A stretch of 63,308 bases of DNA, filler included, from Reclinomonas americana ATCC 50394 (Eukaryota): the NCBI GenBank assembly GCA_048213135.1. It is 5 parts of 4 records of this genome, joined end to end, with 100 filler letters (N's around TTAATTAATTAA, not from the genome) between each part and the next. Parts side by side here need not be neighbours in the genome. Positions count along the whole stretch, not along the records: positions 28,871 to 53,036 come from PS015395.1; 4 more parts are not named here. One strand, 5' to 3'. The notes beneath the pieces are model-generated. The model had not been told where the DNA came from. It saw nothing but the letters and a program-made list of their open reading frames with translations, and did not search any database. The position numbers were made by a program, and so were the translations under genes. Of the stretch, positions 1-63,308 are shown piece by piece. Position 1 is the stretch's first letter. Every line of letters begins with the position of its first letter.

Positions 1-1672
1 ATCGCGCAGGCGTCCGAGAGTGGCCACCTGTGACCAGGATGAGGAGAATGAGAGGAAAGAAACAGGAGAGGGACACAGACCTCACTCTCGAATGACTCCA
101 TCGTCCACGGTGCCTCGGGGTCGAGCACCTTGATGGCCACGTGCATTTCGCGAAGCAGAGTGATGAAGACGGCACCCTGACCGCCCTCGCCGACCTTGAG
201 GCGTGGTGAGAAGGTGTCGGTGGCTTGTACGATCTCGGGCCACTCGAAGCGCTGCACAGCAGTGTCGACTGCAGAGTGTTTGATGGGAAGTGAGACATTG
301 GTGAATTGAACACTGATATGAAGAAAGAATGAGGGCAAGGGACTGACCTTGGGTGAGGAGGAGATCCTGTCGCAGCTGGGAGACGAGTTGATTGCTTTGT
401 TGCAGCTGCGTGGTGAGATGTCCTTGTCACGCAGGGCCACAGTTAGCTGGGCCTGCAGTAGGCCGTGGACTTGCTGCCATTCCGTCACAATCCGCTGCAG
501 CTGGGCGTTTTTCTGCAGCAGCTCTGCGTTGGCTCGCTGCAGTTGGGCAACTTGCTGCTGGCTTTCAGTGCTGACGCGCTGAATTTGGGCATTCTTCTCC
601 TGCTCCTCGGTCCTCCCCCGTTCGAGCACTGCGTTGGCTTGCTGAAGCTGAGCGACAATGTCCTCGTGCTCCCGTCGCTGTCGGTCCCACTCTCGCTGCT
701 GCTGCTCTCGCTCTTGCTGCGCTGCGGCAAGATCGCGCTGGAGTTGCGCATGGAGTGCGTCCTTGTCGGCGAGCTGGCGTGCCATGGCGGGATCATCAAC
801 AGCCGACTGCAATTTACGAGAGTGCGAGGGAGGACACGGAACGGGTGTGAGAAGTGAGTTTCACGAGCAACAGAAGCAGAAAGTGGCACTCTCCGTCTCA
901 CCTGGCGTGCTGGCACTGCATCATATTCGCCAGGAACGACACACAAGACACATGCAGATGGTGGAGCGTGAGCACGAACACAACATGCCAACACACATAA
1001 AAGAGGTCATACCTGCGGGAGGCGGGGATCGCGGCTGCTGTTGTTGCTGTTGGGATGGTGGTGCTGGTTGTGCAGCAAGGCGGCCAAGCAAGTCGGCCAC
1101 TTGCTGCTTGCCTTCGTCGCGTGCCCACTGAGCCGCCGTCTTGCCCTCCTTGTTGACCATGGGAACGAGATCGGGGAAGCGAGTGGCGAGTAGTCGCACA
1201 ATGGATTCGTGGCCATGGTAAGCAGCATAATGCAGTGCCGTGTCACGGCCATTGGAGACCGCCCGCACCATCTCCGGCGGACATCGTCGTTCATCGGCCA
1301 GCAACCACTCCACCACTTGCAGTTGCCCACCAATGGCAGCCACCATCAGTGGCGTCCGGCCATAGTCGTCGACCATTTGTGCGAGTTGTGGTCCGACACC
1401 ACTCTCCTCCCACAAATACTCCAACACAGAGAGATGGCCATAGGCAGCGGCACAGTAAAATGCCGAGCTGCCAACAACATCCATCTCCTCTCTCTTCAGC
1501 AGAGTCAGTGCGCCCTCACGCGCCACCAACTCGCGCAGTGCCTTCACATCGCCTTCCGCTGCCATCTCCAATGCTTTCTTCCGAGGAGCACTGCCACCAA
1601 AGAGGCAAAAGCAGAAGCGCGAGTGAGAGTGAGAGAGAGAATGCCACCTGACAACATCGCAGCACACCTCAT
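1..1672 (-). CDS. Ankyrin-repeat / coiled-coil / IRAK-Pelle(RLK)-like protein kinase, 3' end outside the window; apparent 1-nt frameshift near 420
   Basis: Exons 1672-1668 (ATGAG), 1590-1013 (ankyrin: SAFYCAAAYGHLSVLEYL, GRTPLMVAAIGGQLQVVEWLL, TALHYAAYHGHESIVRLL), 915-902 (14 nt), 806-348 (Q/E/L-rich coiled coil), 268-81 (RFEWPEIVQATDTFSPRLKVGEGGQGAVF...VAIKVL...FESE) and 27-1 (VATLGRLRD). All junctions are GT-AG. Confidence 0.85.
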
Positions 1673-2257
1673 TTCTTTGATCCCGAGACTGGCGGAGAAA
1701 GACAGGAACTCTCTCTCTCTCTCTCTCTGTGCCTCACGCGCGCACTGAGCCGCACACACTGTCAGCCTTTGTTTTTTCCGCGTCCTGTTTCAACGGCGGA
1801 CAGGAATGCGCGTGACGTCGTGTTGCTGCCAAAGCTCGCGAGAGTGTGACCTGTCGAGCTGGAAAGCCTTCTATCCTGGTCATCGTTTTTCCTCGTCAGC
1901 GCACGCGCAGTACGCATTCGTCGAAGTCCAATCTCGAACACCGCGATCGCATTACGAAAGACCTGCAAATGCCCTTCGGCTGCCCGACGCAAGAACGTGT
2001 AGCACAGGCTCTTCTCCACTTGCATCCCGTACTTTCCTCGCCAACGCACATTCCCAAGGTCGAGTTTCAACGATCCGAACACGACGTCGATACCAAATCT
2101 ACTGCAGGAAGCCCTTCCGCAACGCACCACTGATCAGCAGATTCCGCACTCGTACGCCGTACTCACCACTCCCACAAACACCCACAAACGCGACCATGGT
2201 TTCCGAACAGCAAACAAATTTTCGCGCTCAAAACCGCCAACAACACCCCCGGCCGAG

Positions 2258-5316: not shown

Positions 5317-5875
5317 GAGAGAGAGAGAGAGAGAGACAACAACNNNNNNNNNNNNNNNNNNNNNNNNNNNNNNNNNNNNNNNNNNNNTTAATTAATTAAN
5401 NNNNNNNNNNNNNNNNNNNNNNNNNNNNNNNNNNNNNNNNNNNTGAGAGACAACTCTTCTCCAGAGAGAATCCCAGAGAGCAAGGCAGTGACGCACACAA
5501 AGTGACAGACAGCAGGCCAGTGCTCACATTCGAATCGTGCTCTGTTGTCACCATGTCAGTCTCATCCTGTCAGTCTCCGTTGCCTTCATGTCCATCCTCA
5601 CCTCTCCCCCTCCCCCCTTCTCCCTTCCCCCCTTCCCCCTTTCCCCCTTTCCCCCTTTCCCCCCTTCCCCCCTTCCCCCCTCCCCCCCTTCCCCCTTCCC
5701 GCGCAGCTACGTCCCCGGCACCTGGGAGGCCATCAAAATGGCCTGGATCCAATACGTCTCCTTCATCCTCGTCATCGGGTGGATCTCGTTCTCGCTGGTG
5801 GGCCTGCTCGTGGTCAAGCGCATCCTGCCCACGCGGGTGATACGCGACTCCACACCCAAGCTGCATCAATTTTAG
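2258..5875 (+). CDS. TMEM231: Ciliary transition-zone transmembrane protein TMEM231
   Basis: Exons 2258-2387, 3141-3313, 4468-4638, 4707-4999 and 5707-5875 join in frame. They give an N-terminal TM helix then AFWLRSNTFFEPPKV, IEDDDLDGRAS, DGQLQFHQREP, YMSRNETT and YVPGTWEAIKMAWIQY plus a C-terminal TM helix, which is the TMEM231 family pattern. Confidence 0.88.
3454..3745. repeat. Degenerate 10/20-bp periodic repeat (CTCGTTTGCA/CTCGTTTCCT) in TMEM231 intron 2
   Basis: Repeated cgtttgcact/cgtttcctct units are directly visible. Confidence 0.85.
3817..3885. repeat. Cluster of (A)GGGTTG(A) telomere-like motifs
   Basis: About six agggttg/ggttga motifs in 70 bp. Confidence 0.55.
5344..5443. other. 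Artificial scaffold linker N44-TTAATTAATTAA-N44
   Basis: Six-frame-stop 12-mer at 5388-5399 embedded in Ns; the same construct occurs four times. Confidence 0.97.
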
Positions 5876-21600: not shown

Positions 21601-24600
21601 TCCTTTTTACGCACCTGGCACCCCTGACCCCAACTGCATCTGCAGCGCACGAATCTTGTGCTTCCTTCTCCTCTGCCGCAAAAACTCCTCGCCAAACTCC
21701 AACACCAGCGTCACCGCGCGCCGTCCACTCGCCGGATCGCCGACCCGATGGTGCACCGTCACCAGCACCTCCTGCTCGCCACCCGACGCCCCCAACAGGA
21801 AGAATTCCGGCCGCACCGTCACCCCTCCATCCGCACAATACGCCCGCACAAACGCCATGCGACTGCCGTGGTTGACGGCGCGCGTGCACAGCTGCGCCTC
21901 GCCACCCGGCGGCACACGCAACACCAGCACCGACGAGTCGGCGGCCGAGCTCTCCCGTCGCACCTGCAGCGCCACCTGCGCCGTGCCGGCCCAGGCCAGC
22001 AGTGGGATCTTGAAAATGGTCTGCGGATCGGTCTGCAGCAGCAGTGCGGACCGGTGCGCCAAGGCACGGGTGGGCGTGCGCTGCAGCGTCGGCCGGAAGC
22101 GCACCTCCACACGCGTGCTCTCCCCGGGCGCCAGATGCACCACGGGCGACGTGGCAATGTCGAACACACGCGGCACGCCACTGGCCGGGTGCGGCGGTGG
22201 GGCGACGGACACGTCGATGCTGCACGAGCGGTAGGCGCTGTTGTTGGACACTATCACCGACTCGGTCTTGGTCTCGCCGTGCGCCACCGCCGAGAAGTTG
22301 ACCACGGGTCGGTCGCAGATGATTGTCGGCGCCTCCTCCACCTCGGCCAGCACGGGGATGGAGTAGCGTGAGTGCGCGGTGCGCAGGGTCAGGGTGCCGT
22401 TGATCTGCCGGTGGGGAAGGAGGGGGAAAGAGGGGGAAGGGAGTTAGCAGGGAGAAGGAGGGGGTAAGAGGGGGAAGGGAGTTAGCAGGGAGAAGGAAAA
22501 GGGGAAGAGAGGGAAGGAGAAGAGACGGAAGGAGAAGAGACGGAAGGAGAAGAGAGGGAAGAAGAAGAGACGGAAGAAGAGAGAGAAGGAGAAGAGACGG
22601 AAGGAGAAGAGAGGGAAGAAAAAAGACGGAAGAAGAGAGAGAAGGAGAAGAGACGGAAGGAGAAGAGAGGGAAGAAGAAGAGACGGAAGAAGAGACGGAA
22701 GGAGAAGAGACGGAAGGAGAAGAGATGGAAGGAGAAGAGACGGAAGGAGAAGAGATGGAANNNNNNNNNNNNNNNNNNNNNNNNNNNNNNNNNNNNNNNN
22801 NNNNNNNNNNNNNNNNNNNNNNNNNNNNNNNNNNNNNNNNNNNNNNNNNNNNNNNNNNNNNNNNNNNNNNNNNNNNNNNNNNNNNNNNNNNNNNNNNNNN
22901 NNNNNNNNNNNNNNNNNNNNNNNNNNNNNNNNNNNNNNNNNNNNNNNNNNNNNNNNNNNNNNNNNNNNNNNNNNNNNNNNNNNNNNNNNNNNNNNNNNNN
23001 NNNNNNNNNNNNNNNNNNNNNNNNNNNNNNNNNNNNNNNNNNNNNNNNNNNNNNNNNNNNNNNNNNNNNNNNNNNNNNNNNNNNNNNNNNNNNNNNNNNN
23101 NNNNNNNNNNNNNNNNNNNNNNNNNNNNNNNNNNNNNNNNNNNNNNNNNNNNNNNNNNNNNNNNNNNNNNNNNNNNNNNNNNNNNNNNNNNNNNNNNNNN
23201 NNNNNNNNNNNNNNNNNNNNNNNNNNNNNNNNNNNNNNNNNNNNNNNNNNNNNNNNNNNNNNNNNNNNNNNNNNNNNNNNNNNNNNNNNNNNNNNNNNNN
23301 NNNNNNNNNNNNNNNNNNNNNNNNNNNNNNNNNNNNNNNNNNNNNNNNNNNNNNNNNNNNNNNNNNNNNNNNNNNNNNNNNNNNNNNNNNNNNNNNNNNN
23401 NNNNNNNNNNNNNNNNNNNNNNNNNNNNNNNNNNNNNNNNNNNNNNNNNNNNNNNNNNNNNNNNNNNNNAGAGAGAGAGAGAGAAACAGAGAGAGAGAGA
23501 AGGGGAAGGAGAAGGGGGAAGGAGAAGAGAGGGAAGGAGAAGAGGCGGAAGGACAAGAGACGGAAGGAGAAGGGAGAAGGGAGTTAGCAGGGAGAAGGTT
23601 GACGCTCATTGTCAGTTTCTTTCACCTTCAAGATATCTCTCTCCCCTCTCTCGCTCCATGATTGCTCACTCTAGCTCCGGAGAAGCGAATTGCACATTTG
23701 CACTCTCACAAACAATCTGTCTCAATTGTTGCGCTCTGTCTCATCACTTCGCTCACTCATTCCTGACTCTTCCTCTGTGATGAGTCTGCGTTACATTCAT
23801 CTCATTCTACTTCTTGCCTCCGACAGCAGTTGTATTGTCGGAAGAGAGAAAGAGACAGAAGAAGACGAGGAGAGGCGAAGAGAAACATAGCAGCTGCACT
23901 TCTTCGCTAAATAAGTCTCACTCTCACTGTCCATCGCTCTTCCCCTCGCTCTCATGAGTCATCCCATTACTCGTCCCAGTCCCTTCACTTTTCCCCCTCA
24001 CTCTTACCCTTCACACTTCACTCCTGCAACACTCTTTCCGATCTCCCTTCTCATCACTTCCCTTCGTCCCCATAATTCTTCCCCGCCTCGCTCGATTCTT
24101 CAACTTTCTCGCCGCTCTTCCATGTCACCGTTCCTCTCATTCTTTCCTTTTCCCTTCACTTTTTCCTTCCTCTTCTCCTCACACTGTCTTTAATTTGCTC
24201 CCTTTGCTCTTTCCCTTCTCTCATATCCTCGCTCTCTCCCTTCCCCCTTGATTCCCACTCTTCCCTTTCCCTTCACTTTTCCTTACCCTTCTCCTCACAC
24301 TGTCTTTCACTTGCTCCCTTTGCTCTTCCCCTTCTCATATTCTCCTCGCTCTCTCCCTTCCCCCTCCGTCTCTCTCATTATCCTTCCCTGCCCTTCCCCT
24401 TCTTCCCTTCCCTTCTCTCCTTCCTCCCTCTCGTCCTTCCCCTCTCTCCACCCACCTTTCCGGTCCTCTGCGGCGTGAATCGCAGCTGCACGGTGACCAC
24501 ATCCTTTGGTGGCACGCGCACCCGCTCCGGGAACTGCAGCTCCACACAATCGCTGTCAAACTCCACATCCAGCGGCAGATTGCCGGCATTCCTCAACGGC

Positions 24601-25437
24601 AACGGCGTGAGACTCGTCTGTCCGAGCACCGCATTGTTGAAAAAGAGCGCCTGGCAGTGCTTCGGAATCTGCAGACGACCACGTCCCGACGATGCCAGCA
24701 GCTCCACTCGTTGCTCCAGCTGCTGCTCGGTCGGCGCCGATTCGTCGGCCAAAAAGTCGGTCCACGGCAGCACCGAAACGTGTGCGTGCACCACGTCGGC
24801 TGCTTGCATGACGTGTGGGTGCGCCGGGCGTCGATACTCAATGGCCACGCGTGTTGGCATCTCGGAGTTGACCGGCAGCACAATAGAGCGAGGATCTATT
24901 GACAGAGAATGGTGAGAAAGGGTGTGAGGCAACGCCTTGATGGGAATGGCGACGCACCTGCGGGTTGTGGAACATTTTCGTGCGCACTGTCGAGGTAAAT
25001 GTGGAATGGTGGCTCGGTGGAACCTGCACAATGACGAGTTTGTCAGCAATAGAGCCACAACATAAGCATCCATGTCCACCACACCATGCGCCACAAGGGT
25101 GGCCATCAGCAACAGTGGAGCCGCAGTCTTGTTCCACACTCGGAATGTCTGCAACACTGGTCCGTCGGCCACCAGCGACTGTGGTGTGCCACTGAAAATC
25201 AAGTCCGCCGAGTCAACCTGCATGTGCGCAAGTGAGACAACCTTGCACCGCATCAAGAGAGAGAGAGACAGAGAGAGACAGAGAGAGACAGAGAGAGACA
25301 GAGAGAGAGAGAGAGACAGAGAGACAGAGAGATAGAGAGATAGAGAGACAGAGAGAGAGACAGAGAGAGAGAGAGACAGAGAGACACAAAGAGACACAGA
25401 GAGACACAGAGAGAGAGAGACACGGAGAGAGAGAGAC

Positions 25438-50825: not shown

Positions 50826-51988
50826 TCACAAGTGCTGCGTGCAGGCAGCGGAGACACCCGACGGTGTGGCTGGCGAGTACGAGCAGTACGTGCACTGTGC
50901 ACGGCGGCTGGCGTCGAAGCCGGCGAGGTCCATGCGCGCGTGCACAATCAGCAGTTGAGCGTGGCGCACAAAGCGAGTGAGGTCCTCGGATTTGCTGCTG
51001 TCGGTGAAGTAGGAGAAGAGGTCCTGCGAGAGGGGGAAGGGGAAGGGGGAGAAGGGTAAGGGGAAAAGGGGAAAGGATAGCGAATGAGGTGTAAGGGGAA
51101 GAAATGGATAGAAGACGGAGGGGATGGATGAAAGAAACGGAGACACGGTAAGCAATCAGACGAAGAGATCAAGCAAGAGCACAACCGATAGTAAAGGGGA
51201 GGGCAAGTTATGCAACAAGCAATAGTGCACGACTGGCGACAGAGGGCGGCAGAATAACAAGACCTGAGGGCAAGAGGAAAGAAAGACGAAGGACAGAGAA
51301 CGCAAGGTGAAAGTGAGTCAAGGGTAAACCGAAGGGAAGCACATGGGAGAAGAGGGCGCGAAAACAGAGATAGGAAGAGAACATGAACACTGCAAGACAG
51401 TAAATGAAGGGAGAGAGACAGAAGACAGCAAAAACAACAGTGCGCGAGAGACAAGATGATTCCGTGCAAAAAGCGAAAGAAATGAGACAGCATCGTGGGA
51501 GAGTCCCAGCGAAATGCAACGCACCGACGGCACCCCCGAGTCAGGAATCAAGCTCTTGCGGATGGCCTTTTGGAGTTTGTGGCCCTGGAAGAGACCTGTT
51601 GCACACAGCATGAGACCAAGCGCATTCAAGGACTTCCCATGTTAGGCTCACCAATCTTGTCGCTGTCGCGCAGCTTCGGCAGCAGCGGCTTCAATCGCGT
51701 GTGGAACTCCTCAATGTCGATGAATCGAGACGCCGGCACCGAATGGACCTCCGAGGTGTTGAACAAAATGGTGCCGAAGCTGGCGTGAGGGAGAATGAGA
51801 AGGGATGAGAAAACAGAAGATCAGATTTGATCTCTCTCTCTCTCACGCAGTCACTCGGTCTGCACCTCTCTCTCTCTCGCTCGCTCTCCGTCTCTCTCTC
51901 CCTCTCTCTGTCTATCTGTCGCCTCTCGTCTCTCTCCCTCTCCCTCTCTCTGTTATCTGTCTCTCTCCCTCTCTCTCTTACCTCTCTC

Positions 51989-52021
<33 letters not shown>

Positions 52022-52971
52022 GTCACTCTCTCTGTCTGCCTGTTTGCTTGTCTGTCTGTCTGTATATATCTCACACACTTCTCTCCAACTCAACCTCTCT
52101 CACTCTCTGTGAGTCCGTGTGCCACTCCCTACCCCTCCACGAACCCACACAGAGGCGACGGTCTGATCAGGTAGCTACCGAGGCCAAACAACTTCAAGAA
52201 CGGTTCCAAAATCGAGCCTGCCGTCACGGGGAAAAAGTCTGCAACCGAGAAAAAAACGAGAGTGAGTTTGTTTCACAGTCTCTCTCTGCCAGTCTTTCTG
52301 TGTGTGTTTGTGAGCGCAAGCGTGTGTGTATCGATGTGTGCCGCTCTGTACAGAGACTCACTCGAATGGGTGCTAATTTCACAATCTCTCTGCCTCGCTT
52401 TCTGTGAGTGTGAGAGAATACGCATGTGTGTGCGAGTGCGTGCCGCTCTGTATCGAGGCTCACTCGGAGGCTATTACGCAAAGCCAACAAACACACACCC
52501 TCGCTTGCTCGCTCTCTGATGCAGATTCTCATGCACATCCAACAAGCACATGCACATCAGCAGCACACACTCTCATTCACCCCCACGCACGAGTTGGAAA
52601 AACTTGAAGAAGGCCAAGGAATTCAAGAGGTCGAGGGTCAACTATCTCCCCTCCCTCTCTCGTAATCCCCTATGCCTCGCTTCCCCCTCCTTCCCCTCAC
52701 ATTCCCCTCCTTTTTCCCCAACCTCACCATCGATGGAAATCTGCCCGCCACTCGCCGCCGACACCGTCTCCATCAGCTCACACGGATCCAACGAAAATTG
52801 CTTCTTGCGGTCCCTCAGCGACTCAATAATCTCGCCCGGCGGCCGCTCCAGCGACAACACCACAATTGGCACAGTGGCGTATGCACTGCGCAGCTCCGCC
52901 AGGATCTCAGTGAGATCGGGGAATGGGCGGCTGACGCCGAGGGTGACGCCGAGGCGCAGATTGGTGATGCC
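50826..52971 (-). CDS. C-terminal half of a radical SAM protein of the tetraether synthase Tes/GDGT-MAS (MJ0619, COG1964)-like family; 5' part cut by the scaffold linker
   Basis: Exons 52971-52728, 52238-52145, 51779-51652, 51595-51525 and 51023-50826 join in phase to give ...VSAASGGQISIDDFFPV...RPSPLCGFGTILFN...VPASRFIDIEEF...LLIVHARMDLAGFDASRRAQCTYC...SAACTQHL*. This matches the motif order I recall for the family. Confidence 0.72.
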
Positions 52972-53036
52972 CTGCGTGAGACGAATTCAGAAGACATGAA
53001 CAAACGAGAATGGACCCCTCGCATTCTCTCGTTTCC

Positions 53037-53136
53037 NNNNNNNNNNNNNNNNNNNNNNNNNNNNNNNNNNNNNNNNNNNNTTAATTAATTAANNNNNNNN
53101 NNNNNNNNNNNNNNNNNNNNNNNNNNNNNNNNNNNN
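53037..53136. other. Artificial scaffold linker N44-TTAATTAATTAA-N44
   Basis: 12-mer at 53081-53092; it truncates both the ankyrin gene and the radical SAM gene. Confidence 0.97.
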
Positions 53137-53184: not shown

Positions 53185-55081
53185 CTGGCATTCTGGCTCT
53201 GCGCGGACAGTGTGTGAGCAGCAGAAGCAGGATGTACAAAAATTAGGTATTGACGAGGGATCACACCTGCTGCTATAGCTAGTGATATCCGCTGCTGCCG
53301 CGGTGGTTGTGCGTGGCGCAGCGATGATGACTGTGCCGTCAAGTGATCGAGCACGTTGGCCACTTGCCACTGGTCCTTCCATCGCGCCCTCTGCGAGGCC
53401 GTCTTGCCCTTCTTGTCCACAAGGAGAATGAGGTCGGGGTGGCGAGTGGCGAGGAGTCGCACAACATCAATGTGGCCATTTGCTGCNNNNNNNNNNNNNN
53501 NNNNNNNNNNNNNNNNNNNNNNNNNNNNNNNNNNNNNNNNNNNNNNNNNNNNNNNNNNNNNNNNNNNNNNNNNNNNNNNNNNNNNNNNNNNNNNNNNNNN
53601 NNNNNNNNNNNNNNNNNNNNNNNNNNNNNNNNNNNNNNNNNNNNNNNNNNNNNNNNNNNNNNNNNNNNNNNNNNNNNNNNNNNNNNNNNNNNNNNNNNNN
53701 NNNNNNNNNNNNNNNNNNNNNNNNNNNNNNNNNNNNNNNNNNNNNNNNNNNNNNNNNNNNNNNNNNNNNNNNNNNNNNNNNNNNNNNNNNNNNNNNNNNN
53801 NNNNNNNNNNNNNNNNNNNNNNNNNNNNNNNNNNNNNNNNNNNNNNNNNNNNNNNNNNNNNNNNNNNNNNNNNNNNNNNNNNNNNNNNNNNNNNNNNNNN
53901 NNNNNNNNNNNNNNNNNNNNNNNNNNNNNNNNNNNNNNNNNNNNNNNNNNNNNGGCAATATGCAAGGTAGTGGATTGGCCATCAGTGACTGCCCGCACCA
54001 TTGCCGGCGGGCAGCGTTGCTCCTCGGCAAGCAACCATTCCACCACCTCCACTTGCCCATTGAAGGACGCTTCCATCAGCGGGGTTACGCGATTATCAGT
54101 GACCGCGAGTGCAAGTTGTGGCCCGACGCCGCTCTCCGCCCACAAGTACTGCAACACAGCGAGATGGCCACCGGAAGCGGCATTGGAGAAAGCCGTACCA
54201 CCACCACTGTCCATCTCATCTCTCCTCAACAGACTGTCCGCGCCCTCACGTGCCACCAACTCGCGCAGTGCCTCCACATTGCCACTCGCCGCCATCTCCC
54301 ATGCCCGCATCCTTTGCTGTTGCCTGTGATATAAACAGAACGGGAACACCGCTGTCAGCAAACAAAAAACAGGTGACAGACCTTGACAAACACACCTCGG
54401 TTGTTCTGGATAACGAGAGAGGTGTGAGCAGGGCAAGCAAAGCATGAAAAAAGCACAACACGCACCCAGCGGCGCAGCCAGGCGATCGAGCAACTCAGCC
54501 ACTTGCTCCTTGCCATTCGAGCGTGCCGTCTGCGCCGCCGTCTTGCCCTCCTTATCGGTCATCGCAATGAGATCCGGGTAACAGGAGGCAAGAAGAAAGA
54601 CAATGACTTCGTGGCCTTCGTCGGCCGCACAGTGCAGTGCAGTGGACTGTGGAAAGTCGTCGCCGTCATTCGAGACAATGCGCACCATCTCCGGCGGACA
54701 CCGTCGCTCATCGTCGAGCAACCACTCCACCACATGCAAGTGTCCATTGTAGGCGGCCTCCATCAGAGGCGACCATCCGTGCATGTCGACCATTTGTGCG
54801 AGTTGTGGCCCGACTCCACTCTCCTCCCACAGATACTCCAACACCGACAAGTGGCCGCGTTCAACAGCACAGCAGAATGCAGAGTTGCCGTACTTGTTCA
54901 TCTCCTCTCTCCTCAGCAGAGTGTGGGCGCCCTCGCGTGCCACCAACTCGCGCAGTGCCTGCACATTGCCCTCAGCTGCCATCTCCCATGCTTTCTTCTT
55001 CCTCTTGCGACGAGAACTGCGCGCGGGACAAAGAAGTGGATGTGTGAGAGTGTTGATGATAAACGCAGTGGTGTGCCTCAT
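53185..55081 (-). CDS. Ankyrin-module gene (paralogue of 1-1672) with two tandem ankyrin cassettes; 3' part cut by the linker
   Basis: ATGAG 55081-55077, cassette 55016-54466, cassette 54323-53267 (interrupted by a gap) and a 14-nt micro-exon 53198-53185 homologous to 915-902. Confidence 0.82.
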
Positions 55082-56223
55082 GCTTTGCTGAAGATGTCGA
55101 TGGAGTGGGCAGCTCTCTCTCTCTCTCTCTCACGCGTTTAGTTGTTTTTCCGAGCGCAGGACAACTTTTCTGTGTTTCGACGTCGACGACGAGGAAGAAG
55201 AAGGGAAGAGGATAAAGTAGGAGCAGGAGGAGGAAGACTTGGATATCCACAGGCGGCGGCGCATGGTGGGGAGGATTTGCGATCGCGAGGAGGTCCTGGT
55301 GACGCAAGGTGCGCGAGCTCGACACGTGGAGTCTGCAACGGTGCGAGGTTATAAACTTGGCGGGCATTAGATAAATCTGATCTGCGCGCTCTCAAAAACT
55401 GTCTACTCTGCGTGCTGCGAGTGAGAACGAGAGAGATTCTCCGATGGATGCAGCNNNNNNNNNNNNNNNNNNNNNNNNNNNNNNNNNNNNNNNNNNNNNN
55501 NNNNNNNNNNNNNNNNNNNNNNNNNNNNNNNNNNNNNNNNNNNNNNNNNNNNNNNNNNNNNNNNNNNNNNNNNNNNNNNNNNNNNNNNNNNNNNNNNNNN
55601 NNNNNNNNNNNNNNNNNNNNNNNNNNNNNNNNNNNNNNNNNNNNNNNNNNNNNNNNNNNNNNNNNNNNNNNNNNNNNNNNNNNNNNNNNNNNNNNNNNNN
55701 NNNNNNNNNNNNNNNNNNNNNNNNNNNNNNNNNNNNNNNNNNNNNNNNNNNNNNNNNNNNNNNNNNNNNNNNNNNNNNNNNNNNNNNNNNNNNNNNNNNN
55801 NNNNNNNNNNNNNNNNNNNNNNNNNNNNNNNNNNNNNNNNNNNNNNNNNNNNNNNNNNNNNNNNNNNNNNNNNNNNNNNNNNNNNNNNNNNNNNNNNNNN
55901 NNNNNNNNNNNNNNNNNNNNNNNNNNNNNNNNNNNNNNNNNNNNNNNNNNNNNNNNNNNNNNNNNNNNNNNNNNNNNNNNNNNNNNNNNNNNNNNNNNNN
56001 NNNNNNNNNNGGACAGATCAATATCGATTTGCTGAAAGGTTTTCTTCGCTTTCTCTCGCCGCTGTCACGCAAAAAAGCGAGGCGTTCTTGGATTTCTAAG
56101 CATCCACAGTGTGCACTGCAATCGTGAATTCCGATTTTCGATATCATGCACCCTGGCCAATTACAAATCACTCGTTGCTCGCGCGACAGTTGTGATAACG
56201 CCACACTCAGTGTTGCACGCGCA

Positions 56224-56826: not shown

Positions 56827-56926
56827 NNNNNNNNNNNNNNNNNNNNNNNNNNNNNNNNNNNNNNNNNNNNTTAATTAATTAANNNNNNNNNNNNNNNNNN
56901 NNNNNNNNNNNNNNNNNNNNNNNNNN
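56827..56926. other. Artificial scaffold linker N44-TTAATTAATTAA-N44
   Basis: 12-mer at 56871-56882. Confidence 0.97.
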
Positions 56927-61039: not shown

Positions 61040-63192
61040 GAGACAGCCGTCGCTCCGCACGATGAGTGCGGTGGCCTTTTGGTCAGCGGTGGTGCGTTTT
61101 TTTGACGGGCCGCACCGAAGTGATGCCACTCTAGAGGAGCATGCGACCTCCTGATCATGAATACATCGCTCATAGTTGGACCGTATCGACGGCCTCACCA
61201 CACTGCGTCGACTGTGTGTGCGAGCTGGCCAATCCACGACCGAGTGGAAACGTCATGCGGCCGACTTGCACACCTCGACGTCGATGAGCAATTGTAGACA
61301 GTGGTGTCATGTTGTCACACTCCACATGCGTCTCCGTCTCTCTTGCGACCACATCACGACGTCCAGCCAATGCATTCTCTCTGTCCGCCACGAAGAAGCA
61401 GGACGCGCAGCGTGGCCAACAAAGGCGCAGTGTGTGTGAGAGGCGCAGTGAGCTGTGAGCTGCTGTGAGCAAAGAAAAATGAGGTGCGCTGTGTGATTGT
61501 TGCACAGTCTTTGTGGTTTCTCCTCTTTATGACTCCCCTCTCTTGTGTGTGGCAGTGCCCCTCGCAAGAAAGCATACGAAATGGGCAAGGAAAACGACGT
61601 GCACGCACTGCGCGAGTTGGTCGCGCGTGAGGGCGCGCGCACTCTGCTCGCGCGAGAGGAGATGAGCGCCAGTGGCGGCTCGGCTTTCCACTACGCCGCC
61701 TGGTTCAACCACCTCCCCGTGCTGGAGTATCTGTGGGAGGAGAGCGGAGTCGGTCCACAGCTCGCTCAGTTGGTCGACGACGGCGGCGTAACGCCACTGA
61801 TGGCAGCGGCCTTCACTGGGCATCTGCAAGTGGTCGAGTGGTTGCTGGCCGATGAGCGACGGTGTCCGCCGGAGATGGTGCGCGCAGTCACTCATGCGCA
61901 CGCCGACGCCGGAAATCCGCAGTGCACTGCTCTGCATTTTGCGGCTGGAGAAGGCCACGAAGCTGTTGTGTCGCTCCTCGCCACTCGCTTCCCCGAGCTG
62001 ATTGCCATGGGTGACCAGTGGGGCGAGACTGCGGCGCAGAGGGCGCGCGCCAGTGGTAAGCGGCGAGTGACTGAGTTGCTTGATCACCTCGCAGGCGAGC
62101 ACTGGTAGATGCTCATTGTTGTGTATCTCAGTGAAATTTCTATTGAGACAGCCGTCGCTCCGCACGATGAGTGCGGTGGCCTTTTGGTCAGCGGTGGTGC
62201 GTTTTTTGACGGGCCACACCGAAGTGGTGCCACTCTAGAGGAGCATGCGACCTCCTGATCATGAATACATCGCTCATAGTTGGACCGTATTGACGGCCTC
62301 ACCACACTGCGTCGACTGTGTGTGCGAGCTGGCCAATCCACGACCGAGTGGAAACGTCATGCTGCCGACTTGCACACGTCGACGTCGATGAGCAATTGTA
62401 CGTAGACAGTGGTGTCATGTTGTCACATGCGTGTTCATCACTCTTGCGACCACATCACGACGTCCAGCCAATGCATCCTCTCTGTCCGCCACGAAACAGG
62501 ACGCGCAGCGTGGCCAACGAAGGCGCAGTGTGTGTGAGAGGCGCAGTGAGCTGTGAGCTGCTGTGAGCAAAGAAAAATGAGGTGCGCTGTGTGATTGTTG
62601 CACAGACTTTGCGTTTTCTCCTCTTTATGACTCCCCCTCTCTTGTGTGCGGCAGTGCCTCTCGCAAGAAAGCATACGAAATGGGCAAGGAAAACGACGTG
62701 CACGCACTGCGCGAGTTGGTCGCGCGTGAGGGCGCCCGCACTCTGCTCGCGCGAGATGAGATGAGCGCCAGTGGCGGCTCGGCTTTCCACTACGCCGCCT
62801 GGTTCAACCACCTCCCCGTGCTGGAATATCTGTGGGAGGAGAGCGGAGTCGGTCCACAACTCGCTCAGTTGGTCGACGATGGCGGCGTAACGCCACTGAT
62901 GGCAGCGGCCTTCAATGGGCATCTGCGAGTGGTCGAGTGGTTGCTCCCCGATGAGCGACGGTGTCCGCCGGAGATGGTGCGCGCAGTCACTCATGCGCAC
63001 GACGACGCCGGAAATCCGCAGTGCACTGCTCTGCATTTTGCGGCTGGAGAAGGCCACGAAGCTGTTGTGTTGCTCCTCGCCACTCGCTTCCCCGAGCTGA
63101 TTGCCATGGGCGACAAGTGGGGCGAGACTGCGGCGCAGAGGGCGCACGCCAGTGGTAAGCGGCGAGTGACTGAATTGCTTGATCGCCTCGCA
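61040..63192. repeat. Direct tandem duplication of about 1.1 kb (upstream region plus ankyrin gene start)
   Basis: gagacagccgtcgctccgcacgatgagtgcgg starts at about 61040 and about 62145; the ATGs are 1098 bp apart and the copies are near-identical throughout. Confidence 0.95.
61479..62108 (+). CDS. Ankyrin-module protein, stand-alone or truncated duplicate
   Basis: ATGAG 61479-61483, GT-AG intron, exon 61556-62108 (SAFHYAAWFNHLPVLEYL, GVTPLMAAAFTGHLQVVEWLL, TALHFAAGEGHEAVVSLL) ending in TAG. Confidence 0.82.
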
Positions 63193-63232
63193 GCGGAGCA
63201 GCAGCAACAGCAACAGCAGCCGCCGCCTGCAG
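62577..63232 (+). CDS. Ankyrin-module gene, continues beyond the window
   Basis: ATGAG 62577-62581, exon 62655-63232 ending QQQQPPPA at a phase-1 G|GTGTGA donor, as in the kinase-linked paralogue. Confidence 0.85.
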
Positions 63233-63254
63233 GTGTGATTTCGCGCAGACCTTT

Positions 63255-63308
<54 letters not shown>

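Follow-up and report, generated by a model that had tools for sequence, protein, structure and literature searches.

The window analyzed here is a stretch of 63,308 nucleotides (nt) from the draft genome of the eukaryote Reclinomonas americana ATCC 50394. Positions 50826 to 52971 hold part of an intron-containing gene whose product resembles the tetraether lipid synthase Tes (also called GDGT-MAS). Tes makes the membrane-spanning lipids that characterize archaea, and the locus raises the question of whether this eukaryote encodes an enzyme of the same kind. The initial annotation proposed a probably horizontally acquired enzyme that could make membrane-spanning or macrocyclic lipids. The relationship to Tes and the gene structure held up in our analysis, and the proposed chemistry did not. 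The locus is the 3′ half of a spliceosomal-intron gene from an uncharacterized, Tes-derived eukaryotic family, and its product is probably a radical-SAM-dead, metal- and perhaps lipid-binding derivative (SAM, S-adenosylmethionine).

An uncharacterized eukaryotic family

Five GT..AG-bounded exons run from 52971 down to 50826 on the minus strand and join in phase to 735 nt, a frame of 244 codons followed by a TGA stop. The five phase-consistent exons of the initial annotation are thus confirmed with canonical splice sites. Its four quoted peptides lie on the minus strand where it had placed them, and its bounds are the first base of exon A (52971) and the final base of the stop codon (50826). 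The gene occupies the extreme end of the scaffold at 28871-53036. With the scaffold stopping at 53036, the 5′ half is missing from the window, and six-frame scans of all 1642 open frames in the window with hidden Markov models (HMMs) of Tes and of the eukaryotic family found no N-terminal half or further exon.

Single exons compared with Pfam, NCBIfam and PDB sequences gave no significant match (best, exon C against NF045702 with 10.6 bits, E 0.15), and an exon A search for longer homologous proteins scored 0 of 319 candidates. An archaeal reference was taken from genomes picked by an archaeal 16S primer scan, in which an NF045702 Tes was present in 5/5 and over the cut-off in 4/5. Against the HMM of these five sequences the first exon model scored 26 bits, colinear across four exon junctions, and the spliced peptide scored 33.6 bits, far above the best of 1000 shuffles (2.3 bits). 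When exon A alone was compared by phmmer with 1.84 billion representatives, 9 matches had E <= 0.001 (best 1.9e-7), and three of these are full-length proteins of 457-493 residues. Further searches and cluster look-ups brought the family to 24 sequences in total. A profile search of 5.8 billion proteins, run on the best 8000 candidates by shared words, returned 4 proteins; since only word-sharing candidates were profiled, the taxonomic range of the family is a lower bound.

The named members come from Acytostelium subglobosum, Cavenderia fasciculata, Heterostelium album, Physarum polycephalum, Planoprotostelium fungivorum, Phalansterium solitarium, Cavostelium apophysatum, Luapeleamoeba hula and Hemimastix kukwesjijk. 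Acytostelium, Cavenderia, Heterostelium and Physarum are Amoebozoa, and a taxonomy look-up places Phalansterium, Cavostelium, Planoprotostelium and the genus Luapeleamoeba in the same group and Hemimastix in Hemimastigophora. PROFUN_11363 (Planoprotostelium), DFA_11780 (Cavenderia), PPL_06472 (Heterostelium) and SAMD00019534_124970 (Acytostelium) belong to the family of the window gene, as do EukProt transcripts of Physarum, Phalansterium, Cavostelium, Luapeleamoeba and Hemimastix; the other sequences are Logan, JGI and ENA contigs. The source-given names throughout are "hypothetical" or "uncharacterized".

Scored against an HMM of nine full-length eukaryotic members, the spliced peptide reaches 261.7 bits (E 6.5e-82) and aligns to model positions 231-483 of 485, so the window encodes the C-terminal half of the protein up to the natural end of the family. 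It is 42.5% identical to the Hemimastix protein over 240 residues (E 2.4e-66) and 35-40% identical to the others, which puts the eukaryotic members at 35-42% over about 240 residues. A tblastn search with three homologues matched exons A, B and E with 3/3 queries and exon C with 2/3, in colinear order. A family alignment of 13 sequences has 25 invariant columns, all within residues 245-456 in the C-terminal half, and the window peptide keeps 23 of them. The conserved motifs of the C-terminal domain are DDFFP, EPF, IRPSPFCG, HNNMD, RRCxC and a C-terminal CxGC. Derived features common to the family are SLERxP, HNNMD, RRCxC and a short Cys-rich C-terminus, and the relatives also lack the radical SAM motif.

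Some amoebozoan members carry a GOLD_2 (Golgi-dynamics) insert in the loop between SLERPP, a remnant of the barrel, and the C-terminal domain. The insert was detected in P0010 (E 6.6e-10, residues about 300-410), in P0020 of Luapeleamoeba hula (below cut-off, residues about 270-380) and in the fragments P0001 and P0005. Luapeleamoeba hula belongs to Acanthamoebidae.

Homology of the family to Tes

Profile-profile comparison by hhalign aligned the family with the five archaeal Tes at 99.3% (E 1.1e-20) over 419 columns, family positions 5-464 against 42-499. The family profile matched 7TOL/7TOM in the PDB sequences with E 3.3e-11, and the sole other match had E 0.27. The fold was compared using an AlphaFold2 model of the Hemimastix orthologue P0003. 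The model has a six-unit beta/alpha core (predicted local distance difference test, pLDDT, 80.9; predicted template-modelling score, pTM, 0.84). Foldseek ranked 7TOM first (E 1.3e-17, template-modelling score 0.66), with the next match at E 5.9e-4 and 0.22. VIA-align aligned model residues 1-451 with 7TOM at Z 23.5 and a root-mean-square deviation of 3.9 A over 409 residues, compared to Z 10.5 for the next structure and Z near 10 for other radical SAM folds. An ESM Atlas feature search placed Tes-family clusters first (0.94). NF045702 is the best NCBIfam match of the full-length members P0002 (71.1 bits), P0003 (60.6) and P0009 (81.5), none of which reaches the equivalog cut-off of 450 bits. 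The agreement of the sequence-profile, PDB, fold and Atlas matches makes the homology firm. As judged from profiles and a predicted structure, the family of the window gene is related to Tes over its whole length, and the initial annotation was right to call the gene a Tes homologue.

Tes (MJ0619; 7TOL, 7TOM; NF045702) and the eukaryotic family have the same domain order of a rubredoxin-like ribbon, a beta/alpha barrel and a C-terminal domain. They also share the C-terminal motifs D-F-[FY]-P-V, xxCG, [VI]P..[RK][FL].D and MD...D..R..C, with a further Cys about 15 residues later. The family differs from Tes in being eukaryotic, in having introns and in ending 3 residues after the last Cys, without the Tes tail of roughly 40-60 residues. 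The InterPro family named for Tes/GDGT-MAS is IPR034474 (PMC9433317).

Loss of the radical SAM apparatus in orthologues

Each of the 5/5 archaeal Tes has two CX3CX2C motifs, one for the N-terminal auxiliary cluster and one for the radical SAM cluster, and one GGEP. Neither motif occurs in any family sequence (0/24), 15 of which span the motif site: 13 with the N-terminal ribbon and a length of at least 299 residues, plus P0014 and P0020. An alignment of nine full-length members with Tes has a deletion at both CX3CX2C sites. The loss was observed in orthologues, the 5′ exons of the window gene lying beyond the scaffold end. The initial annotation had stated that a full-length protein lacking CX3CX2C would be a catalytically dead derivative, and such are the orthologues. 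In MJ0619 the ligands of the N-terminal auxiliary [4Fe-4S] cluster are C73, C77, C80 and a His (PMC9433317).

Exon A covers the end of the former barrel and can be examined in the window itself. Tes contacts 5′-deoxyadenosine through Gln268, Ser271 and Arg275 (PMC9433317). The Tes sequence FQPVSxxGR aligns with SLERPPGEII of exon A (MAFFT), and the three contact residues are conserved neither there nor in the family, which confirms the diverged FQP-type strand of the initial annotation. Met439, a ligand of the labile cluster, and Tyr459 are reported to be invariant among 1000 archaeal homologues (PMC9433317). At the place of Met439, three independent alignments put an invariant His, which the window peptide shares with all 13 aligned family members, and the Tyr459 column is Ser in the window and Ser or Thr in the family. 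The Met of the window's HARMD aligns with the non-conserved Met442 of Tes. In its C-terminal half Tes has three invariant Cys (xxCG, RC and PFC), whose counterparts in the window are those of SPLCG, RRAQC and AAC. The suggestion that the Cys and Met positions are retained therefore stands for the three C-terminal Cys and fails for the Met. The Tes C-terminal domain carries an auxiliary cluster and lines the lipid pocket (PMC9433317).

The N-terminal ribbon, C9X2C12X20C33X2H36 in Tes and Pfam PF23545, is known for the family from orthologues. The CxxC...CxxH pattern is present in 13/24 family sequences. PF23545 is over its cut-off in 8/19 scanned sequences (P0002, P0003, P0009, P0011, P0012, P0013, P0015 and P0017) and below it in P0014 and P0019.

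Proposed function and alternatives

Without the SAM-cleaving cluster and the SAM motif, radical chemistry would be impossible and lipid-tail coupling of the Tes type becomes unlikely. Tes chemistry appears lost in the orthologues and, by extension from them, the product of the window gene is unlikely to make tail-linked lipids. An enzyme able to make membrane-spanning or macrocyclic lipids, as first proposed, is unsupported by these motif counts and by the replacement of Met439 and Tyr459. In the explanation that we favor, an ancestral Tes would have lost both CX3CX2C motifs and GGEP, and with them the generation of a 5′-deoxyadenosyl radical from SAM and the formation of C-C bonds between lipid tails. 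It would have survived as a non-radical protein with a C-terminal domain that may still hold a metal or Fe-S center. Candidate ligands for it are three Cys, those in SPLCG, RRAQC and AAC, and the invariant His that occupies the Met439 position. The same domain may also hold a hydrophobic (lipid) ligand, in which case the protein could be a binder, carrier or sensor. The strong conservation of the C-terminal domain suggests that the binding of a metal center, and perhaps of a hydrophobic ligand, has survived as its role, and the GOLD insert of some amoebozoan members hints at membrane or lipid traffic.

Several points weigh against this explanation. An intact radical SAM motif in the unseen N-terminal half of the window gene is formally possible. 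The gene is known here from its DNA sequence, and metal and lipid binding are predictions from residue conservation. It is likewise from their invariance that we infer the three C-terminal Cys to be ligands of the C-terminal [4Fe-4S] cluster of Tes. The C-terminal 24 residues of the P0003 model, which include several Cys, have pLDDT <50. The window protein departs from its family at the invariant N421 (Ala), the invariant penultimate C456 (His) and the near-invariant C434 (Ala), so its metal site, if it has one, may differ or be weakened. It also lacks the GOLD insert of some amoebozoan members.

The main competing explanation is an enzyme with non-radical chemistry on a hydrophobic substrate, in which a metal or Fe-S center bound by the C-terminal Cys and His would act as a Lewis acid or redox site. 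The invariant residues D298, E309, R323, H420, N421, D424, D429, R432 and R433 resemble an active site more than they do a passive pocket, and the barrel fold is kept. Set against this are the absence of a known precedent in the family, the loss of invariant N421 and C456 from the window protein itself and a eukaryotic neighborhood that has no operon and gives no clue to a substrate. We consider this explanation possible and somewhat doubtful.

A functionless, decaying pseudogene or assembly fragment would account for the presence of only half of the gene and for the two altered invariant columns. The truncation coincides with an artificial scaffold joint, however, and five open exons with canonical splice sites and consistent phases, together with the 23 of 25 invariant columns kept, make decay very unlikely. 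A functional radical SAM enzyme of the Tes type, joining lipid tails into membrane-spanning or macrocyclic lipids, could draw on the whole-length homology, the three retained C-terminal Cys and the unseen 5′ half, but it is scarcely credible given the motif counts of 0/24 against 5/5, the unconserved equivalents of Gln268, Ser271 and Arg275 in exon A itself, the loss of Met439 and Tyr459 and the 60.6-81.5 bits of full-length members against a 450-bit cut-off. Prokaryotic contamination of the eukaryotic assembly, to which the archaeal or bacterial nature of the nearest characterized relatives might point, has negligible probability and is already refuted by the gene structure, as the initial annotation had argued from the introns: there are four spliceosomal-type GT..AG introns, the nearest relatives are eukaryotic transcripts and genomes, and a eukaryotic SLC35F gene lies 130-600 nt downstream on the same scaffold and strand.

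Origin of the family

A quick tree was built from 45 rows: 13 eukaryotic, 16 from the Asgard phylum (taken to be the one that includes a Thorarchaeota-titled genome), 10 Desulfobacterota Tes and 6 Tes of other archaea, with Acidobacteriota and Planctomycetota Tes left out. The 13 eukaryotic rows, window protein included, form one clade (100*). Within it the window protein falls outside the starred clade of all named Amoebozoa, in an unresolved group with Hemimastix and P0002. The eukaryotic stem is about 5.4 changes per site long (about 3 + 2.4) and joins at an unresolved node among the prokaryotic groups. The approximately unbiased (AU) test did not reject a clade of eukaryotes and Desulfobacterota, the sole resolution tested (p-AU 0.664), which had a slightly better likelihood.

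Profile similarity by hhalign was highest to Asgard-phylum Tes (164), followed by other archaea (150) and Desulfobacterota (106), and the ESM Atlas clusters listed first were bacterial. Family profile A1 run against 5 prokaryote genomes matched the N-terminal ribbon only, at 31-34 bits in 3/5, too weak to name a donor. A Tes match over cut-off was found in 60/81 sampled Asgard-phylum genomes, and one over 450 bits in 12/251 Desulfobacterota genomes. Bacterial Tes homologues are reported from Acidobacteria and Proteobacteria (PMC8941075). Those of Desulfobacterota (loci L138-L147) have the same family and architecture as the eukaryotic proteins and, unlike them, pass the 450-bit cut-off. These hints conflict, and transfer and descent are both allowed: the tree, the AU test and profile similarity neither show nor exclude that the gene was "probably horizontally acquired", as the initial annotation had put it.

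One specific origin would make the family a relic of archaeal Tes, inherited from an Asgard-related ancestor, stripped of its radical chemistry as bacterial-type membranes took over and kept as a metal- and lipid-binding membrane-traffic protein in scattered deep lineages (Amoebozoa, Hemimastigophora and Reclinomonas americana). The single eukaryotic clade, the frequency of Tes in Asgard-phylum genomes and the hhalign ranking are in its favor. The tree cannot place the long stem and allows a bacterial sister equally, and we regard this origin as improbable. If true, the family would preserve, as a molecular fossil, a trace of the change from archaeal to bacterial membranes.

Three other features of prokaryotic Tes were observed in these searches. 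In a Methanomassiliicoccales-titled genome, Tes occurs as two adjacent frames, L115 and L117 (G005:C8:23614-25078), that match model positions 1-186 and 187-485; a frameshift, a gene split in two or an error in sequencing could explain this. About 30 Desulfobacterota genomes have proteins matching Tes model positions 2 to about 320 only; they form a related group of radical SAM proteins whose C-terminal part differs. Some Asgard-phylum genomes (for example G050, G029, G081, G040 and G018) have a second, more distant Tes-like paralogue with frames of about 570 residues that match model positions 2-374 at about 370-395 bits.

Novelty and significance

Tes has been reported from archaea and some bacteria using strict BLAST cut-offs of E < 1e-50 (PMC8941075), by which the eukaryotic family would be missed. 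The excerpts of the Tes discovery papers (PMC8941075 and PMC9433317) do not mention eukaryotic homologues, and a supplementary text file of PMC8941075 contains no eukaryote terms. A literature search found no paper on a eukaryotic Tes-like protein; the IPR034474 network in the supplement of PMC9433317, which possibly has eukaryotic nodes, was outside that search. A eukaryotic, radical-SAM-dead branch of the Tes family is therefore presented here as new. A conserved, intron-bearing branch shared by Reclinomonas americana and no fewer than two eukaryotic groups very distant from each other was unexpected. It corrects the tempting conclusion that eukaryotes with the family make tetraether-like lipids, which fails because the radical SAM apparatus has been removed. 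The family is a clear natural example of a radical SAM enzyme that has become something different, and it provides a lipid- or metal-binding candidate that can be tested in tractable slime moulds. Its origin, if resolvable, bears on how eukaryotic membranes arose.

Gene model and surrounding locus

Splice junctions were set from splice signals and homologues, that is, from sequence (Table 1). At the junction of exons B and C, donor GG/GTTCGT at 52145 yields SPLCGFGTILF, and the alternative at 52133 (GTAGGG), 12 nt on, inserts four residues. For exon D, the alternative donor at 51534 drops VPS, residues that restore an invariant family Pro (P392) and raise the score. The homologue profile favors donors 52145 and 51525, with 261.7 bits against 253.8 and 249.0. 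An extra 3′ exon was considered, as GTGAGT overlaps the stop codon, and was rejected because the family ends at the same place (HMM position 483/485); the next open frames are those of SLC35F.

Table 1. Features of the Tes-like gene and the end of its scaffold (window positions; bits are for the single exon against the family HMM)
Feature	Positions	Strand	Length (nt)	Splice signals	Remarks
Scaffold joint after the gene's scaffold	53037..53136	.			44 N, TTAATTAATTAA, 44 N
Intron upstream of exon A	52972..53036	-	65 (last part)	acceptor CAG	in-frame stop 5 codons before exon A
Exon A	52728..52971	-	244		last former radical-SAM barrel strands and start of C-terminal domain; SLERPP where Tes has FQPVS, then GGQISID-; 54.2 bits
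Intron 1	52239..52727	-	489	GTGAGG...CAG, phase 1	
Exon B	52145..52238	-	94		-DFFPV...EPF...IRPSPLCG-; 52.6 bits
Intron 2	51780..52144	-	365	GTTCGT...CAG	CT repeats abundant
Exon C	51652..51779	-	128		FGTILFNT...VPASRFIDIEEF...; 35.6 bits
Intron 3	51596..51651	-	56	GTGAGC...CAG	
Exon D	51525..51595	-	71		donor at 51525 adds VPS
Intron 4	51024..51524	-	501	GTGCGT...CAG	
Exon E	50826..51023	-	198		includes TGA at 50826-50828; ...VHARMDLAGFD..RRAQC...AACTQHL; 64.9 bits

The window comes from a draft assembly of a eukaryote in which N runs are frequent, and four identical joints of 44 N, TTAATTAATTAA and 44 N lie at 5344-5443, 28771-28870, 53037-53136 and 56827-56926. The joints are artificial and link unrelated scaffolds; genes that a joint separates are not neighbors. 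The SLC35F-type solute carrier gene 3′ of the Tes-like gene matches PF06027 (E 1.7e-58 and 7.5e-12) on the minus strand at 48313-48900 and about 50190-50400. A 76-nt direct repeat at 50209-50284 and 50636-50711, with copies 92% identical and spaced 427 nt, is a copy of the start of the SLC35F first exon (MA..L.LTLVYGTWWLVKR), and one of the copies lies ~130 nt from the Tes-like stop codon.

Elsewhere in the window, eukaryotic IF4E, ankyrin, Kelch and Cep192 domains were matched. Similar ankyrin-repeat frames (EMAA.GNV.ALRELVAREGA...) occur at 921-1733 (-), 53339-55129 (-), 61533-62108 (+) and 62581-63306 (+), with the Pfam comparison covering 53957-54349; their presence on different scaffolds suggests an expanded gene family. 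Weak matches to Cep192 domains 3/4/5 and to ASH/HYDIN-type Ig domains at 21610-22443 and 24381-25100 (-) may mark a centrosome- or cilium-type protein.

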